Positions 20,274 through 61,875 of a stretch of DNA of 64,000 bases are shown piece by piece (position 1 is the first letter of the stretch; every line of letters begins with the position of its first letter). Source of the DNA: Candidatus Nomurabacteria bacterium RIFCSPHIGHO2_12_FULL_42_19. GTDB lineage: Bacteria > Patescibacteriota > Minisyncoccia > Phycocordibacterales > UBA9973. A program made the translations under genes and the position numbers. Location: contig MFUM01000009.1 in NCBI GenBank assembly GCA_001786955.1, forward strand, positions 552 through 64,551, written 5' to 3'. The notes below the pieces were generated by a model. It did not search any database and had not been told where the DNA came from. It worked only from the letters and a program-made list of their open reading frames with translations.

Positions 20274-21517
20274 AAAGACCGGTTCGTGTTTTTTATCTCA
20301 ACTTTTTTAAGATAGAATATCCCAACAGTAGTAAAAATAGCCATAAACATTACGGCAATTCTATAACGTATTGGACCAAGGCCAATAAAAAGTGAAGTTA
20401 TCAAGCCCCATGACAACGGCCCGACGAGCGTTGAAATACGCTCGGCCAGAGTGTAAAAACTGAAACCAAAATTTAGTTTTTCTTTCGGACACAATGCCGT
20501 CATTGCTGCTCGTGACACCGTCCAGGTTGCACCAAAGAAAAAGCCCATCATAATAGATAAAATTATAAAAACAACAAAGTTGGAAATTATGCCCATAAGT
20601 GGAAATATTACTACCCAACTTCCAAGAATTATCATGAGAGCTTTTTTAAGACCAATTTTATCCGCCAGCCAACCGGTGAAAAATGCACCAATAGCTGAAG
20701 TAGCTAATATACCTATAAGAAGCATTGCTTTTGTACTATCAGAAACACCAAAAACTCTCTGCATGTATATGGAAAAATTATTTTGAGTTGTTATAATTGC
20801 ATCATTAAAAAAGAAAAAGGAAAGAAGGAATAGTCTTATATTTGGTTCTTTTATAAGTTCTTTAAACTGACCCCAGAAATTCTTATACTCTTCTTTCAAG
20901 CTAATTTTATTATAAGCTACTTCCGGTTTTGGTAATTTGAAAAACAAAAGCATTGGTATTGAGAGAATAAAAAATATAATAGTGGCTGGAAGAAATGTCT
21001 GTGCGCGACCAGCTTCACCAACAAGGTAGACTGCACCACTGGCAAGCGGTAGAGTTATTAAAAGTCCAGTAATTTGCCCTAGCCAATTTCCAGTTTGACC
21101 GATACCCGATATTCTTCCCCACCTTTCCGGTGGAGCAATATGATGTAAAAGCGCATTATAAAAAACAAAAGAAAACTGATAAAGATAGTTTGCGATTATA
21201 AAAAACAGGACTGCTAAAAATACTTGATGGGAAAAAAAGAGAGTTATAAATGACACGCCAAGAAAAGACAGGAAGGTCAAAACCGTAATCCAATTAAGAT
21301 AGTTTTGCTGTTTTCCATTTTTATCGGCAATACTTCCTAGAATTGGAGCGGTCAAAAGAAGCAAAATAGAACCAATTGTAAAAATCATATTATACCAAAA
21401 ATCAGAAACTCCCCTATCCACGACTAACCATTGCGAGAAATATAAAAAAAAGACAATAGTAGTTATTGAATTTGCAAAATCATAGAGAGCCCAAAAGAAA
21501 ATATTTTTCTTATTCAT
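20270..21517 (-). CDS. MFS transporter
   Basis: 415 aa with roughly 12 predicted TM segments and the MFS-like loop motif GSIADKNGK. Confidence 0.7.
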   Translation of the reverse strand: MNKKNIFFWALYDFANSITTIVFFLYFSQWLVVDRGVSDFWYNMIFTIGSILLLLTAPILGSIADKNGKQQNYLNWITVLTFLSFLGVSFITLFFSHQVFLAVLFFIIANYLYQFSFVFYNALLHHIAPPERWGRISGIGQTGNWLGQITGLLITLPLASGAVYLVGEAGRAQTFLPATIIFFILSIPMLLFFKLPKPEVAYNKISLKEEYKNFWGQFKELIKEPNIRLFLLSFFFFNDAIITTQNNFSIYMQRVFGVSDSTKAMLLIGILATSAIGAFFTGWLADKIGLKKALMIILGSWVVIFPLMGIISNFVVFIILSIMMGFFFGATWTVSRAAMTALCPKEKLNFGFSFYTLAERISTLVGPLSWGLITSLFIGLGPIRYRIAVMFMAIFTTVGIFYLKKVEIKNTNRSF

Positions 21518-21522
21518 TTTTG

Positions 21523-21594
21523 TGCCTGGGGGCAGAATCGCACTGCCGACCTATCCCTCTTCAGGGGAGAGCTCTACTACTGAGCTACCCAGGC
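21523..21594 (-). tRNA. tRNA-Phe (anticodon GAA)
   Basis: Reverse complement is GCCTGGG-TA-GCTC-AGTAGTA-GAGC-T-CTCCC-CTGAAGA-GGGAT-AGGTC-GGCAG-TGCGATT-CTGCC-CCCAGGC-A. Confidence 0.85.
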
Positions 21595-21615
21595 ATGGTT
21601 ATTTAATAAACAACT

Positions 21616-21697
21616 ATGCCTGGGTATTTATATACCGAATGAGTCCCGACGCATTTAGGTCGGGAAGCCGACTGAAACGTCGGCTCTACCCAGGCAT
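21616..21697 (+). repeat. Family-1 double-hairpin element copy A, enclosed by an 11-bp inverted repeat that copies the tRNA-Phe 5' end
   Basis: atgcctgggta (21616-21626) and tacccaggcat (21687-21697) flank hairpin 1 tcccgac-gcatttag-gtcggga (21644-21665) and hairpin 2 agccgac-tgaaac-gtcggct (21666-21685). Confidence 0.75.
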
Positions 21698-21957
21698 CAC
21701 GATTTTATCTTGATAAAACCGTCTTTAATTATACTAGCAATATAATCATGTCTTTTCAACTTTTTTAGCTTAAATTCAATACTTCTAGCTTCTTTTAAGG
21801 TTTGATATTTTTGAGAAAAAATTAGTTTTAGTTTCCCTAATCTTTTAGTTGAAGGGGTATAGCCACCTAAATGGTGTTGCATTCTATCGTCCAAATCAAC
21901 AGTGCTACCTATGTAATACTTTCCATCTTCATTTTGTAATATATAAACAAATGCCAT
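21697..21957 (-). CDS. GIY-YIG nuclease, YhbQ/UPF0213-like small protein
   Basis: FVYILQNEDGKYYIGSTVDLDDRMQHH gives the GIY...YIG motif plus the Arg/His catalytic region. 86 aa. Confidence 0.75.
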   Translation of the reverse strand: MAFVYILQNEDGKYYIGSTVDLDDRMQHHLGGYTPSTKRLGKLKLIFSQKYQTLKEARSIEFKLKKLKRHDYIASIIKDGFIKIKS

Positions 21958-21966
21958 AAAACTGAG

Positions 21967-22020
21967 TCCCGACGCCCTTTGGGGTCGGGAGGCCGACCTA
22001 GCGTCGGCCCTACCCAGGCA
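21967..22020 (+). repeat. Family-1 double-hairpin element copy B, ending in a third copy of the tRNA-Phe 5'-end 11-mer
   Basis: tcccgac-gccctttgggg-tcggga, then ggccgac-ctagc-gtcggcc, then ctacccaggca. Outer pairs covary relative to copy A (a-t changed to g-c). Confidence 0.75.
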
Positions 22021-22025
22021 ATTAC

Positions 22026-22271
22026 CTATTGGTTAAGCTGTCTAAAATTATTGAGCATATCGCCTGCCCCGCTATATACGCCTACTAACTGTTCCAAATA
22101 CGGCTGGATAAAATAATATGCGCCGATTGCGGAGCCGATTATAAACGCCCAATACAAGAAACTCATAATGCGCGACAGGCGCATAGAGCGATGCAACGAA
22201 CGCAACATACCGTTATTTTCTTCGGCCAGTTTGAAAGTGGCCTCAAGCAACTTCTTGGATTCAGGATCCAT
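22026..22271 (-). CDS. Hypothetical small membrane protein
   Basis: 81 aa with one hydrophobic helix (IMSFLYWAFIIGSAIGAYYFI). Confidence 0.3.
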   Translation of the reverse strand: MDPESKKLLEATFKLAEENNGMLRSLHRSMRLSRIMSFLYWAFIIGSAIGAYYFIQPYLEQLVGVYSGAGDMLNNFRQLNQ

Positions 22272-22338
22272 GAGTATAATTTAACATAAAATTTTAGAAA
22301 ATAAAAGAGATATTATTGCTCCTGGTGCAGAGTAATTA

Positions 22339-22539
22339 TTATCTTATCCTTTCCATAATCTTATTAAGCCAATATCTATATTCTCCTTGCTCAATCCATT
22401 TATTTTTCAAAGCCTCGGCTAAATTTGGCACATCATAAGTTCCTTTTTCTAATGAATCTAGAAATGCCTCCTTGGCCTGTTCTTCTGGGCTAAGGGTTCT
22501 TTGGTCCGGGCTTGGTTCCATTTGTGATTTCCCATTCAT
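22339..22539 (-). CDS. Hypothetical small protein
   Basis: 66-aa ORF with no recognisable motif. Confidence 0.25.
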   Translation of the reverse strand: MNGKSQMEPSPDQRTLSPEEQAKEAFLDSLEKGTYDVPNLAEALKNKWIEQGEYRYWLNKIMERIR

Positions 22540-22582
22540 GGAAGTATTTTATCACATTTTTTTAAAAAAATCAATAAACGTG

Positions 22583-22654
22583 TGCCCTCGGCAGGAATTG
22601 AACCTACATCTATTCCTTAGGACGGAACTGTTCTATCCGTTGAACTACGAGGGC
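22583..22654 (-). tRNA. tRNA-Arg (anticodon CCT)
   Basis: Reverse complement is GCCCTCG-TA-GTTC-AACGGATA-GAAC-A-GTTCC-GTCCTAA-GGAAT-AGAT-GTAGG-TTCAATT-CCTGC-CGAGGGC-A. Confidence 0.8.
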
Positions 22655-35186: not shown

Positions 35187-35242
35187 AAAAATCGGCTTGG
35201 ATAAGCTTTTTCGATTCTAGCAGAAAAAGCCCATATTTCAAA

Positions 35243-35561
35243 CCCCCACACCTTTTGTTTTATGGCTTCAGATCATATAATAGTCATTATGTACTATGTA
35301 TATATTTTGAAGAGCTTGAAAGATGAAAAATTATATATTGGTTCAACCAATGATCTGAAGCGAAGACTTTCGGAACACAATAATGGACTTAATCGTTCAA
35401 CGAAAGCGAGGCGGCCTTTCGAACTGAGATATTATGAAGCTTGTGCCAGTAAATATGATGCAAGAAAAAGAGAATATGCGCTAAAAAAAGACGGTAAAGC
35501 CTTAGGCCAATTAAAAAGAAGAATCTCCGAAAGTCTTCAATAAAAACGAAAGGTGTGGGGG
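35243..35561. mobile_element. GIY-YIG gene cassette bounded by a 19-bp inverted repeat (1 mismatch)
   Basis: cccccacaccttttgtttt (35243-35261) and aaaacgaaaggtgtggggg (35543-35561) flank the 35262-35543 ORF exactly. The left arm ends at the ATG. The right arm begins at the stop and ends 1 nt before the murJ stop. Confidence 0.55.
35262..35543 (+). CDS. GIY-YIG nuclease, YhbQ/UPF0213-like small protein (paralog of 21697-21957)
   Basis: YYVYILKSLKDEKLYIGSTNDLKRRLSEH. 93 aa. Confidence 0.75.
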   Translation: MASDHIIVIMYYVYILKSLKDEKLYIGSTNDLKRRLSEHNNGLNRSTKARRPFELRYYEACASKYDARKREYALKKDGKALGQLKRRISESLQ

Positions 35562-37277
35562 TCAAAGCTCTTCCTGGGACGGCGCGATGACTTCTGCGCG
35601 CCAGAATTTTGTTTTCAGAGTCTTGATGAGGTCATTCAATTCTTCGCTTTTAAGCAGATACAAAACTACAATGGCGGCCATTATGCCTAAAATCCCGGAA
35701 ATGAAGCCTTGTAAAAATACGCCCCAGAATGTTGTCGTGCCAAAAACCGGGGAAAATGCGTTCAGGCTCAAATAAGACACCAATCCTAAAAAAAACGACG
35801 CGCCTAAACTTTGAAAAAAGGTTTTGGTAATAAAAGATTCATCCGGCATAAAATCTCTCTTTATAAAAATCCAGTGCAAAATAAAATTTAAAATAGTTCC
35901 GATGGAATATGCGAGCGGAAGCATCAATACTTCGGTCCCGGCAATGTCGTTCACTTTAAGCAGTGATTCCATAAAATAACGGAACAAGAGCGCGTTTTTA
36001 AAAAAATAAATAAATACATAAGACAAGATTATAATCAGGACAGAACAGGAAAAATTCACCAAGAGTGGGCGCTTGGTATTGCCGGTCGCATAATAAGAGC
36101 GGGACAAAAGAGCAATCATTCCCTGCGCGAGAATTGAAACGGAAAAAATCGCGAGACCGGCCGCCACCAGACGGGTATCGTCCCAAGAAAAAGACCCGGA
36201 ACCGAGAATCACGCGCACAATCTGCGCCCGCAGCACGATGAAGAGAAAGATTACGGGAAGCGACCAAAAGACGATTGCCCGGGCAGTTGACTTTAAATGT
36301 TTTTTAAATTCGTCCTTCCGGCCACCGGAAAAAGATTTTGCCAAAGTGGGAAAGGCCGCCACCGCGTAAGATATGCCGATAATGTTCAGCGGCACCGACT
36401 GAAGATTGAATGAGAAATTAAATATGGAAATGGAGCCGCTTTTTAAAAACGAAGCCAGGGCAATAATGCTGATTAGGGCGATGTTGTTAAAAGCGAGGCC
36501 CAGGGTTCTGGGAAATGAAGCTGCTGCCGCCTGTTTAATATCCTTAAAATTGACTGAAGGCGAAAATTTAAGCGTAAATCCGCAAGAGCGAGACGCATAA
36601 AATTGTATTCCAAGATGCATCAGGGCGCCAAGCACGACGCCTATCGCCAGCCCGTAAATTCCAAAAATCGGATAAAAAAATAAAACACCGGCGATAATTC
36701 CTAAGTTGTAAAAAATCGGGCTTAAAGAATAGATAAAAAACTTGTGAAAAAGCTGGGTTACCGTGCCGAAAAGATTGGAAAGACCCATTAAAATCGGAGA
36801 GAGCAGCATTATCCGTGAAAGTAAAATAAGTTTCTCTTGGAAAAGCGGAGCAAAGCCCGGAGCAATAAGAGGAGCTAAATATGGCATGAGAAAAAAAGCA
36901 GCAAGAGAAACAAATATCATCAAGCTGAAAAAAACGGTAAAAATGTCATTCAAATATTTTTGGGCTTCAGAAGTTGCTTTCCCCCCGTCCCCGCCTACTC
37001 CCGAACCATCGTGAGAGCGGGCAGGCATTTTTGCCGCCATAAAAGGTATGAGCACCGTTACGGAAGCCAACGATGCTATGCAGATAAAAATCAGGTCCGG
37101 CACACGAAAAGCGGCATAATAAGCATCCAGAGAGGAAGAAGGCCCGATAAAATGCGCGATGGAACGGTCGCGGAAAAGGGCCAAAATTTGAGAAAATAAA
37201 GTAAAACAGCCCAAAAGGAGCGCGGCCTGGTTGATATTCCCATATTCTTTGCCGAAAATTCTTAGGATTTTCTCCAT
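35562..37277 (-). CDS. murJ: Lipid II flippase MurJ (MviN)
   Basis: 571 aa with 14 predicted TM segments. The N-terminus LLGCFTLFSQILALFRDRSIAHFIG matches MurJ. Confidence 0.8.
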   Translation of the reverse strand: MEKILRIFGKEYGNINQAALLLGCFTLFSQILALFRDRSIAHFIGPSSSLDAYYAAFRVPDLIFICIASLASVTVLIPFMAAKMPARSHDGSGVGGDGGKATSEAQKYLNDIFTVFFSLMIFVSLAAFFLMPYLAPLIAPGFAPLFQEKLILLSRIMLLSPILMGLSNLFGTVTQLFHKFFIYSLSPIFYNLGIIAGVLFFYPIFGIYGLAIGVVLGALMHLGIQFYASRSCGFTLKFSPSVNFKDIKQAAAASFPRTLGLAFNNIALISIIALASFLKSGSISIFNFSFNLQSVPLNIIGISYAVAAFPTLAKSFSGGRKDEFKKHLKSTARAIVFWSLPVIFLFIVLRAQIVRVILGSGSFSWDDTRLVAAGLAIFSVSILAQGMIALLSRSYYATGNTKRPLLVNFSCSVLIIILSYVFIYFFKNALLFRYFMESLLKVNDIAGTEVLMLPLAYSIGTILNFILHWIFIKRDFMPDESFITKTFFQSLGASFFLGLVSYLSLNAFSPVFGTTTFWGVFLQGFISGILGIMAAIVVLYLLKSEELNDLIKTLKTKFWRAEVIAPSQEEL

Positions 37278-53872: not shown

Positions 53873-53913
53873 CCCCGACGCCTTTGGGTCGGGGTCCCGA
53901 CTTTTCGTCGGGA
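53873..53913. repeat. Family-1 double-hairpin element copy C (intergenic)
   Basis: ccccgac-gcctttgg-gtcgggg followed by tcccgac-ttttc-gtcggga. Confidence 0.75.
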
Positions 53914-60888: not shown

Positions 60889-61875
60889 TCATTTTAATTT
60901 ATCTTTTAAATTTTTCAGCATTTCCGCAGTCATTTTTTCCAGATTAAATTCGGGCTTCCAGCCCCAGTCTGCGCGGGCCGCGCTGTCATCAATGCTTTTC
61001 GGCCAGGAATCGGCAATCTTTTGGCGGAGATCCGGCATATAGTTTATTTCAAAAGAAGGAATATGTTTTTTGATTTCTTCGGCAATTTCCCGCGGCGAGA
61101 AACTCATGGCGGACAAATTATACGCCATGCGGGATTGCACTTTCTCAACCGGAACCTCCATTATTTCTATCGTGGCGCGGATTGCATCATCCATATACAT
61201 CATCGGGAGATAAGTATTCTCTGAAAGAAAACATGTATATTTTCCCTGTTTCAATGCTTCGTAATATATTTCCACGGCATAGTCGGTAGTGCCCCCTCCC
61301 GGTTCGCTCTTCCAGCTGATAAGCCCCGGATAACGCACGCTACGGACATCAAGACCAAAGCGCCTATTGTAATATTGGCACAATAATTCTCCGGTATATT
61401 TCGTAATTCCATACATAGTAGTCGGTTCAATAATTGTTTTTTGCGGAGTATTTTCTCTGGGAGCTGTCACGCCAAAGACGGCGATAGAACTCGGCCAGAA
61501 TAATTTAATTTTTTCATCCACGCTCAAGTCAAGAATTTGCCGCAGGCTTCCCATATTAAGTTCCCAGGCAAGTTTTGGATTTTTCTCGCCGGTTGCCGAC
61601 AGCAACGCCGCTAGCAAATAGATTGTTGTTATTTTTTTCCCGACGCTTTCGGTCGGGACCCCGACCCCAGAGGGCGTCGGGGCTTTCACTAGAGCACGAA
61701 CAGCCTCCGCATCCATTGCATCTAATATCGCAAAAGGGCCGGTACCTAAGAGTAGCGGATGTTCTTCTTTAATGTCGGTGGCCAAAACATTCTCATTGCC
61801 GTATTTTTTCCGCAACGCCAAAGTTAGCTCTACCCCTATTTGCCCGCATGCTCCGATGACTAAAATCTTTTCCAT
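60889..61875 (-). CDS. tdh: L-threonine 3-dehydrogenase (NAD-dependent epimerase/dehydratase-type), carrying an in-frame repeat insertion
   Basis: Rossmann motif ILVIGACGQIG and catalytic YxxxK (YGITKYTGE). It is adjacent to kbl. The 16-aa segment APTPSGVGVPTESVGK between LVK and KITTIYLLAALLSA is absent from homologs. Confidence 0.8.
   Translation of the reverse strand: MEKILVIGACGQIGVELTLALRKKYGNENVLATDIKEEHPLLLGTGPFAILDAMDAEAVRALVKAPTPSGVGVPTESVGKKITTIYLLAALLSATGEKNPKLAWELNMGSLRQILDLSVDEKIKLFWPSSIAVFGVTAPRENTPQKTIIEPTTMYGITKYTGELLCQYYNRRFGLDVRSVRYPGLISWKSEPGGGTTDYAVEIYYEALKQGKYTCFLSENTYLPMMYMDDAIRATIEIMEVPVEKVQSRMAYNLSAMSFSPREIAEEIKKHIPSFEINYMPDLRQKIADSWPKSIDDSAARADWGWKPEFNLEKMTAEMLKNLKDKLK
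61638..61682. repeat. Family-1 double-hairpin element copy D, inside the tdh CDS in frame
   Basis: tcccgac-gctttcg-gtcggga followed by ccccgac-cccagagggc-gtcgggg. The reverse complement translates as PTPSGVGVPTESVG in the tdh frame. Confidence 0.75.

Follow-up and report, generated by a model that had tools for sequence, protein, structure and literature searches.

A probable homing-endonuclease-like GIY-YIG cassette at the 5' ends of tRNA genes in Patescibacteria

The window analyzed here is the 64,000-nucleotide (nt) stretch of contig MFUM01000009.1 from Candidatus Nomurabacteria, and all feature coordinates are window positions. Its tRNA-Phe gene carries, within the 5' part, an inserted cassette with a single gene for a small GIY-YIG protein, and a duplication of the tRNA 5' end regenerates the intact tRNA behind the insert. 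Related cassettes stand at the 5' ends of many other tRNA genes, often with the open reading frame (ORF) fused to the tRNA start, share a characteristic hairpin block, and occur in states of gain, decay, and loss. The locus is read here, with a probability of about 0.7, as a homing-endonuclease-like selfish cassette, accompanied by a hairpin module, which enters tRNA genes at the 5' end and restores the tRNA. This figure refers to the kind of element, and confidence in the individual mechanistic steps is lower; cleavage by the nuclease, its target, and the role of the hairpins are inferred.

Insertion of a GIY-YIG gene in the 5' part of tRNA-Phe

In a search of the window, the 11-mer CTACCCAGGCA was found on the plus strand in exactly three copies (21585-21595, 21686-21696, and 22010-22020), together with one inverted copy with a single mismatch (21617-21627). 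Dinucleotide shuffles contained a mean of 0.42 matches to the 11-mer, and none of 100 reached at least four. The tRNA-Phe(GAA) gene lies on the minus strand at 21522-21594 as located by ARAGORN and matched Rfam RF00005 at 61.2 bits over all 71 model positions; the 11-mer therefore corresponds to tRNA position -1 plus nt 1 to 10 and reads T followed by GCCTGGGTAG on the transcribed strand. A sequence-only reading of the same stretch had already reported the three same-orientation copies, one of them at tRNA-Phe, and an 11-nt inverted repeat (21616-21626/21687-21697), and both were recovered exactly by the window and repeat searches. It had placed the 11-mer at the end of each longer repeat, whereas in the direction of transcription, on the minus strand, the 11-mer starts each of them.

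On the minus strand, an upstream 81-amino-acid (aa) gene (22026-22271, without a Pfam match), which served as a synteny anchor, is followed after its stop codon by GTAAT, a first repeat unit (unit B), TTT, the ATG and GIY-YIG ORF to its TGA, and a second repeat unit (unit A). After unit A come 13 nt, TACCCAGGCAT, 19 nt, and A-TGCCTGGGTAG-CTCAGTAGTAGAGC..., which is the intact tRNA-Phe, whose 5' end is the right-hand one of the duplicated copies. The repeat search of the window delimited the two units as direct repeats of about 57 nt, each composed of the 11-mer, two hairpins, and ACTCA. Unit B opens at 22010-22020 with an exact left copy of tRNA-Phe nt -1 to 10, TGCCTGGGTAG, which occupies the original position of the tRNA 5' end, 6 nt past the stop of the 81-aa gene; the same left flank at the empty site of a close relative (L095) and the overlap of blastn junctions, both described below, support this assignment. 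Hairpin block B (21967-22009), GGCCGAC-GCTAG-GTCGGCC, T, CCCGAC-CCCAAAGGGC-GTCGGG, A, is inserted between tRNA nt 10 and 11, and CTCAGT (21961-21966), identified as nt 11 to 16 of the left copy by comparison with the window tRNA and the L095 site, leads to TTT and the ATG. Unit A is an ORF-less copy of unit B, with an exact 11-mer directly after the TGA (21686-21696), followed by hairpin block A (21640-21685), AGCCGAC-GTTTCA-GTCGGCT, T, CCCGAC-CTAAATGC-GTCGGG, A, plus CTCA. Without the 44-nt hairpin block, both units have the sequence TGCCTGGGTAG-CTCAG(T), which corresponds to tRNA-Phe nt -1 to 15/16. What appear as direct repeats are thus 5' pieces of the tRNA, interrupted after nt 10.

The upstream 81-aa protein was used to search metagenome contigs, which yielded 80 related loci, about 68 of them informative. 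In most of these, the 81-aa gene is followed by tRNA-Phe within 6 to 50 nt, and the GIY-YIG gene, the hairpins, and the duplicate are missing. Besides L095, about 60 relatives have tRNA-Phe straight behind the 81-aa gene. The closest relative, L095, with flanks 95.7% identical over 1081 nt downstream and 98% identical upstream, has a single 11-mer and an intact tRNA-Phe straight after the 81-aa gene, TAG GTAATT|GCCTGGGTAGCTCAG (= ...TAG GTAATT|GCCTGGGTAGCTCAGTAGTAGAGCTCTCCC), and thus presents the empty site that the sequence-only reading had proposed to look for in relatives. Since the two blastn junctions between L095 and the window overlap on exactly the 11-mer, the window has a 425-nt insertion flanked by 11-nt direct repeats, and the GIY-YIG gene is the only ORF in this insert. 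The ancestral arrangement is the 81-aa gene, 6 nt, and tRNA-Phe, to which the window adds the 425 nt. Over the first 240 nt downstream of the insertion, 238 positions are identical between L095 and the window, over the 160 nt upstream the identity is 90 to 95%, and a divergent tract lies 200 to 500 nt upstream (22200-22520). The comparison favors insertion or precise loss.

The locus was 100% identical over 801 nt, with an identical protein, in 10 independently assembled contigs (L001-L010), one of which belongs to GenBank assembly GCA_001786115.1. It is therefore real and no assembly artifact; being identical throughout this region, the 10 contigs carry no information on polymorphism.

Other genes occupy the same junction between the 81-aa gene and tRNA-Phe in further relatives. 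A reverse-oriented HNH endonuclease gene (PF01844, about 125 to 140 aa) was found there in L143, L146, L147, L149, and L160, and a gene for a 250-aa helix-turn-helix protein that reads into the tRNA in L170 (498-1250). Nuclease genes thus have a hot spot at this 5' junction of tRNA-Phe. L149 retains a TGCCTGGGT fragment to the left of its HNH gene.

The GIY-YIG protein and its tRNA partners

The ORF at 21697-21957, on the minus strand, encodes 86 aa and matched Pfam PF01541 with an E value of 2.7e-14 (53.7 bits against a cut-off of 22.6), so the small GIY-YIG gene reported earlier between the second and third 11-mers stands. The label YhbQ-like given to it is also sound, the nearest structures being the UPF0213 proteins BH0048 (1zg2) and EF2693 (1ywl), with E values of 1.2e-10 and 5.4e-8 in a profile comparison with the PDB. 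The AlphaFold model, with a predicted local distance difference test score (pLDDT) of 87, gave 1zg2 and 1ywl as the best Foldseek matches, followed by Slx1 and UvrC-N. Residues Y5, Y15, G17, R25, H29, and E61 are invariant among 40 homologs, and the catalytic residues of the GIY-YIG superfamily are kept. By these comparisons the single-domain protein can be assigned to the UPF0213/YhbQ-like members of the superfamily, with a predicted nuclease activity. The ratio of nonsynonymous to synonymous substitution rates (dN/dS) was 0.07 to 0.27 at dS of 0.6 to 1.7 in the tRNA-Phe clade, and this purifying selection together with the invariant catalytic residues indicates a functional ORF.

A profile search returned 621 clusters (50% identity) at E ≤ 1e-10, all of small proteins, and the homologs at 53 to 84% identity were all small proteins of Patescibacteria, or candidate phyla radiation (CPR) bacteria. 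A scan of viral contigs gave just two distant matches with 34% identity, which leaves a phage origin unsupported. Rfam matched only the six tRNAs over the whole window at gathering thresholds and nothing besides tRNAs over 21400-22300 at E up to 10, and no group I intron around the ORF was found in either search. With TIGR01453, which tests for group I intron-encoded GIY-YIG endonucleases, the protein reached 26 bits against a cut-off of 56.

The association with tRNA genes was analyzed in 80 loci from many CPR lineages, obtained by a profile search of one genome per species, and with the window and extra loci included, 83 distinct ORFs were compared. A tRNA gene lies downstream on the same strand in 73 of the 83. 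The stop codon is the tRNA's own U8-A9-G10 (TAG) in 33 ORFs, the conserved C-terminal Lys-Pro codons of which use tRNA nt 1 to 4; in 28 the tRNA starts 0 to 16 nt past the ORF's own stop, and in 12 the gap is 17 to 200 nt. No tRNA was called for 10 ORFs, in five of which the contig ends within 350 nt past the ORF. The partners, summed up as 11 amino-acid types plus one tRNA with a stop anticodon, are tRNAs for Thr (24), Phe (17), Val (8), Asn (6), Ile and Lys (5 each), Met (3), Arg (2), and Ala and Gly (1 each), and TAGCTCA at nt 8 to 14 is present in 83% of the partner tRNAs compared to 31% of other tRNAs. The sequence-only reading had suggested that the nuclease gene is cargo, but a passive cargo is unlikely: the insert has no other gene, and in 73 of 83 cases a member of this protein family stands at the 5' end of a tRNA.

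A copy of the 5' end of the cassette's own tRNA lies about 60 to 110 nt upstream of the ATG. An exact match to nt 1 to 7 within 150 nt upstream of the ATG was found in 49% of the loci, compared to 0.9% for the 7-mers of other loci, and an exact 10-mer copy within 500 nt upstream in 42 of 85 GIY-YIG-adjacent tRNAs, compared to 4 of 199 other tRNAs (Fisher p = 8e-22). In sequence, the left copy changes along with its tRNA, as seen among tRNA-Phe loci with GCCAAGATAG (L012), GCCGAGATAG (L017), GCCGGGGTAG (L019), and GCTCAGATAG (L072). Two layouts prevail among 45 left copies, namely, nt 1 to 10, the hairpin block, and A + CTCAG... in 32, and nt 1 to 15, a hairpin block in the opposite orientation, and TTGGTAGAGC (nt 16 to 25) in 11, with two copies matching neither. 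What follows the hairpins differs with the kind of tRNA, being CTCAAT at tRNA-Asn and CTCATT at tRNA-Ala; in L023, L050, L059, and L065 the duplication extends 6 to 15 nt upstream of nt 1, and the whole module measures about 0.35 to 0.45 kb. Maintenance of the left copy by pairing with the 3' acceptor strand of the tRNA was considered and rejected; six of eight single mismatches, read by eye, keep a G.U pair, which cannot be told apart from transition bias.

Two further loci extend this picture of partners. A distant GIY-YIG paralog in L016 (436-690), 42% identical to the window protein, ends 5 nt before tRNA-Gly(CCC) and has two CCGAC hairpins upstream, so that the tRNA-linked habit reaches beyond the sampled subfamily. 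In L074 (2755-2828), ARAGORN assigned the anticodon UUA ("tRNA-Stop") to the tRNA after the GIY-YIG gene, which may be a miscalled tRNA-Lys or a suppressor-like tRNA.

Intact, tandem, truncated, decayed, and empty states were all found across the loci. The ORF-less unit A is common to the window and L016/L097, the second unit of L044 retains a truncated N terminus, ATG-CCA-TTT-TTT-TAC-ATA-CTA-TAA (MPFFYIL*), L031 has three copies of its 10-mer, and in L065 some 40 nt from the 3' end of an ORF stand ahead of the left copy. In the decayed locus L155, the left copy, half a hairpin, and the last 27 codons remain. These states match the invasion-decay-loss cycle of a homing endonuclease gene. Unit A, L016, and the tandem or truncated units of L044, L031, and L065 also uphold the earlier suggestion of repeated integration or duplication at a tRNA end. 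The repeats, however, are not att-like attachment sites with the 11-mer at the end but tRNA 5' fragments (nt 1 to 15/25) split by hairpins. A neighbor-joining tree of the 86 aa, poorly resolved and used only to show mixing of tRNA types, intermixes the types, with the same type in 47 of 73 nearest neighbors, and one metagenome-assembled genome carries two cassettes, at tRNA-Phe and tRNA-Thr (L049, L076).

The hairpin block, a proposed mechanism, and competing explanations

Of 82 ORFs, 75 have at least one CCGAC..GTCGG hairpin in the 150 nt upstream of the ATG and 70 have two or more, compared to none of 75 control windows. In the 755 kb of collected loci, 273 hairpins were counted against about 10 in shuffles, and 231 are within 260 nt of a GIY-YIG match. 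The stem core C-CGAC/GTCG-G is invariant, with covariation in two outer pairs (CG/TA/GC and TA/CG/AT). Mismatches of the G.T kind are as common as those of the C.A kind and thus favor neither strand. Hairpins are nested in one another's loops in L041 and L084, and one and the same hairpin is found in either orientation, its loop then reading TGAAAC or GTTTCA. In L059, L074, and L080, this core forms single hairpins that precede T-runs and have a terminator-like appearance.

Two solo double-hairpin blocks are present in the window, and solo blocks were found in other loci as well. The first, CCCCGAC..GTCGGGG T CCCGAC..GTCGGGA (53874-53912), is intergenic between two minus-strand genes, with no tRNA fragment or GIY-YIG gene nearby. 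The second (61639-61681) lies in frame in the L-threonine 3-dehydrogenase (TDH) gene (ORF 60889-61875, minus strand) and adds 14 residues (about APTPSGVGVPTESV), exactly where solved TDH structures show a 14-residue gap. Rickettsia-type palindromic elements likewise insert in frame into genes.

In the homing-endonuclease-like reading, the nuclease would cut cassette-free tRNA genes that carry the common D-arm TAGCTCAG(T)TGGTAGAGC, and double-strand-break repair on an occupied template would copy the cassette, as in homing. The shared, near-universal D-arm may offer the target, the homology for occasional jumps between tRNA types, or both. Survivors would be only those products that regenerate the whole tRNA, and it is this selection that is proposed to explain the 5' duplication. 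Because promoter space between ORF and tRNA is lacking, the ORF probably forms the 5' leader of a pre-tRNA that is transcribed from a host promoter upstream. RNase P would then separate ORF and tRNA; where the two overlap, in 33 cases, its cut would take away the stop codon, with a possible restriction of nuclease expression. The hairpin block is envisaged as a semi-independent palindromic module, inserted in either orientation at nt 10/11 or 15/16, nestable, and also able to stand alone; it would break the TAG|CTCAG|TTGG D-arm motif in the leftover fragment and may serve as a binding or regulatory site of the nuclease. Tandem units could result from re-invasion or unequal recombination, with subsequent decay of their ORFs, and recombination between the 11-nt repeats could restore the empty site.

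Several observations weigh against this reading. Since the D-arm of the regenerated tRNA is intact, immunity cannot come simply from destruction of the target by the insertion. The limits of the duplicated segment vary from -15 to -1 on the left and from +10 to +26 on the right, and this variable length disfavors a fixed staggered cut. No clear co-conversion gradient was seen beside the insertion in the comparison of L095 with the window, and chimeric acceptor stems, expected if simple repair had made the jumps between tRNA types, were not observed. Even the closest pair across tRNA types reaches just 79% identity, and a very recent jump is thus absent from the loci compared; in the Nomurabacteria clade the cassette is found in conserved synteny at dS of about 1, which fits long vertical residence as well as ongoing homing. 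Characterized GIY-YIG homing enzymes have a separate DNA-binding domain, which the 86-aa protein lacks. A conserved internal promoter for the tRNA in the 3' end of the ORF was unsupported in the window and the 82 ORFs; the window has one match to the promoter consensus (21759-21731), below the shuffled expectation of 2.8, and synonymous sites at the ORF 3' end show no unusual conservation across the 82 ORFs.

Among known systems, the nearest functional analogue is SegB, a free-standing GIY-YIG homing endonuclease in the tRNA gene cluster of T4, for which spread by cleavage of the gene-less allele and repair has been shown (PMC2330249; PMC2988022). The cassette resembles SegB and other T4-like free-standing genes as an intron-less GIY-YIG gene beside tRNA genes that is present or absent between close relatives; homing is demonstrated for SegB and proposed for the cassette. 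SegB is larger, has a DNA-binding region, is phage-borne, and lies between tRNA genes, whereas the cassette encodes an 86-aa catalytic domain only, is chromosomal, and sits inside the tRNA 5' part with a duplication, a fusion to the tRNA start, and a conserved double hairpin. UPF0213/YhbQ-like proteins (COG2827; 1zg2, 1ywl) and the Slx1 domain share its fold, single-domain size, and catalytic residues at about 30% identity; annotations of such small proteins exist throughout the bacteria, and no biological role or link to tRNAs or hairpins was found for UPF0213 proteins in the literature searched. Homing-endonuclease insertions have been described in CPR rRNA genes, some of them with GIY-YIG genes and not recognizable as introns, in a study in which tRNA genes and hairpin blocks go unmentioned (PMC11270868). 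They are alike in phylum and in placing nuclease genes in essential structural RNA genes, but they must be removed from the RNA, whereas here the tRNA is regenerated by duplication and splicing is unneeded. In the full-text, non-paywalled literature searched, no account was found of GIY-YIG cassettes linked to tRNA genes or of such hairpins in CPR bacteria.

The cassette is classed with free-standing homing-endonuclease-like selfish genes, with an unusual and widespread architecture. With it, one large UPF0213/YhbQ-like branch (the 621 clusters) gains a concrete, testable biology, and the places where selfish nuclease genes reside in Patescibacteria come to include tRNA genes in addition to rRNA genes. 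The cassette settles in essential single-copy tRNA genes without destroying them and even takes their invariant U8-A9-G10 as its stop. It is a minimal nuclease, the target of which may be the conserved tRNA D-arm or the defined hairpin. It would also explain the stray tRNA 5' fragments and GC-rich hairpins beside tRNA genes of Patescibacteria, which can mislead annotation.

A bolder version, put forward tentatively and rather doubtful, is a two-part mobile system in which the 86-aa GIY-YIG nuclease recognizes and moves the CCGAC/GTCGG double hairpins, uses the D-arm as a landing pad, and is expressed from the pre-tRNA transcript. The GIY-YIG protein of such a two-part system might, just as tentatively, be the hydrolytic-nuclease counterpart of the REP-associated tyrosine transposase (RAYT) of repetitive extragenic palindromic (REP) sequences, with hairpins spreading into intergenic sites and in frame into genes. 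If this were true, tRNA loci and proteins would have been reshaped across the whole phylum.

An unlikely alternative, partly compatible with a homing-like cassette, takes the double hairpin itself as the mobile unit, similar to REPs or MITEs (miniature inverted-repeat transposable elements), the GIY-YIG protein as a nuclease dedicated to it and acting in trans, in the way that RAYT serves REPs, and the tRNA fragments as its preferred landing site after xTAG or CTCAG; the ORF would move along with its hairpins. The nested hairpins, the occurrence of both orientations with the same loop, and the 85% of hairpins that adjoin a GIY-YIG gene agree with it, and so do the intergenic and in-frame solo blocks, which make the hairpins a conserved-core palindrome family with dispersed solo copies. 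REPs tagged with a stem-adjoining GTAG are known, and some REPs lie in genes and flank their transposase gene (PMC3733652). REPs and REPINs (PMC3733652, PMC3116915) share with the blocks described here the short, paired, GC-rich palindromes with a conserved core that flank a small nuclease gene and also occur alone, but their enzyme is a Y1 (HUH) transposase, whereas here it is a GIY-YIG protein, the copy number is low, and the site is mainly a tRNA 5' fragment. Two solo blocks in 64 kb are far below the abundance of REPs, and neither has a TAG or CTCAG flank. GIY-YIG enzymes are hydrolytic, and to our knowledge they have no known strand-transfer chemistry. Duplications of the tRNA 5' end free of both hairpin and ORF exist in L052, L130, L137, and L169, so that the hairpin is not needed for duplication.

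These ORF-less fragments take several forms. Units of a 5' fragment plus hairpins, a point in favor of a REP-like hairpin, lie upstream of tRNA-Arg(CCT) in L016 (1322-1370) and L019 (2038-2090, minus strand), and the hairpin-less duplications (nt 1 to 21 or 1 to 28) are found 65 to 76 nt upstream of tRNA-Met, tRNA-Gly(CCC), and tRNA-Phe in L052 (about 1453), L137/L139, L130, and L169. L168 has a minihelix of the acceptor stem alone, GCCAAGGTA-CGCTG-TCTTGGCA. All of these may be footprints of lost insertions.

Domestication is less probable again. The gene would then have a cellular role tied to the co-transcribed tRNA, in its processing, repair, or quality control, and the repeats would be relics of an old, immobile insertion. 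Strong purifying selection (dN/dS 0.07 to 0.27 at dS of about 1), synteny kept in several Nomurabacteria species, the very tight coupling of ORF and tRNA, and the near absence of the family from viral contigs would all suit such a role. A domesticated gene is, however, hard to reconcile with its clean absence from the closest relative, L095, and from most relatives, with its more than 10 tRNA types, several copies per genome, and tandem and decayed copies, and with the HNH nuclease gene found at the same spot elsewhere.

Classical site-specific integration, with an integrase encoded elsewhere, an att site containing the tRNA 5' 11-mer, and the nuclease gene as cargo, is very improbable. Integrative elements that target tRNA genes use the tRNA 3' end and a tyrosine or serine recombinase, are kilobases long, and restore the tRNA. 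Like them, the cassette has a tRNA gene as its target, leaves that gene whole by means of a duplicated segment, and results in direct repeats; the tRNA-derived repeats around the insert and the single copy at the empty site speak for integration of this kind. The cassette, however, lies at the 5' end and spans about 0.35 to 0.45 kb. No integrase or recombinase gene is in or near the insert, which is only 425 nt long; the repeats derive from nt -1 to 10/16 and not from the 3' end, are interrupted by hairpins, and lack the constant length of a transposon's target-site duplication, and the passenger is always the same ORF family.

The closing arm of unit A, the second GIY-YIG cassette, and the tRNA-rich neighborhood

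A palindrome with 20-nt arms (21586-21626) precedes the intact tRNA, in which 21607-21626 is an inverted copy of 21586-21605, the tRNA leader plus nt 1 to 9, with a 90% match. Its outer 11 nt also pair perfectly (100%) with 21687-21697 and so close unit A. The closing arm TACCCAGGCAT (TA-CCCAGGCAT) repeats the tRNA leader and 5' end in inverted form, and since TA stands where the true tRNA 3' end has CC, it is a fold-back copy of the 5' end and no tRNA 3' end. With the closing arm, unit A folds as RNA at -43.9 kcal/mol (z -6.5). The three-way, tRNA-like junction of the sequence-only reading thus exists in the lineage of the window and L016/L097, the only loci that keep the arm, but the resemblance to a tRNA does not hold. 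A functional tRNA-like or decoy RNA at 21616-21697, although its closed three-way junction is stable and its closing stem equals the 5' strand of the tRNA-Phe acceptor, is hardly credible given the lineage-limited arm, the lack of any ARAGORN match or of an Rfam match even at E up to 10, hairpin mismatches that favor no strand, and the low folding energy expected of any perfect GC hairpin pair.

The tRNA-Phe at 21522-21594 has an unusual T-arm, GGCAG-TGCGATT-CTGCC, with G at the position of the expected T/psi-55, and L016 shows the same. The usual tRNA T-loop is TTCGAAT, and T/psi-55 is nearly universal.

The second GIY-YIG gene of the window is part of a mini-cassette on the plus strand (35242-35562), with an ORF at 35262/35289-35543 and arms resembling terminal inverted repeats, ACCCCCACACCTTT (35242-35255) and AAAGGTGTGGGGGT (35549-35562). 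The ORF matched Pfam with an E value of 4e-20 and its product is 40% identical to the first protein; its family gave 764 matches at E ≤ 1e-8. The inverted arms (CCCCCACACCTTT...) are conserved in L177, L180, and L182, the neighboring genes of which are unrelated, and a promoter-like TTGTTT..TATAAT inside the left arm is conserved as well; no tRNA is near the second cassette. It has the look of a separate mini-element, about 340 bp in length. The sequence-only reading had described this paralog as bracketed by a 19-bp inverted repeat, in support of a general mobility of small nuclease cassettes; the cassette with conserved arms stands and supports mobility in general, but the repeat is exact over 14 nt, not 19, and a mechanism in common with the tRNA-Phe cassette is not supported.

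The whole tRNA-rich region around the window locus is variable. In L095 (270-1993, corresponding to about 22577-22587 in the window), a 1.7-kb insertion with ORFs of 237 aa, probably for a membrane protein, and 242 aa lies at the 3' end of tRNA-Arg(CCT), with about 11 nt aligning on both sides. The place of a 66-aa ORF of the window (22339-22539) is taken in L095 by an unrelated 75-aa ORF.

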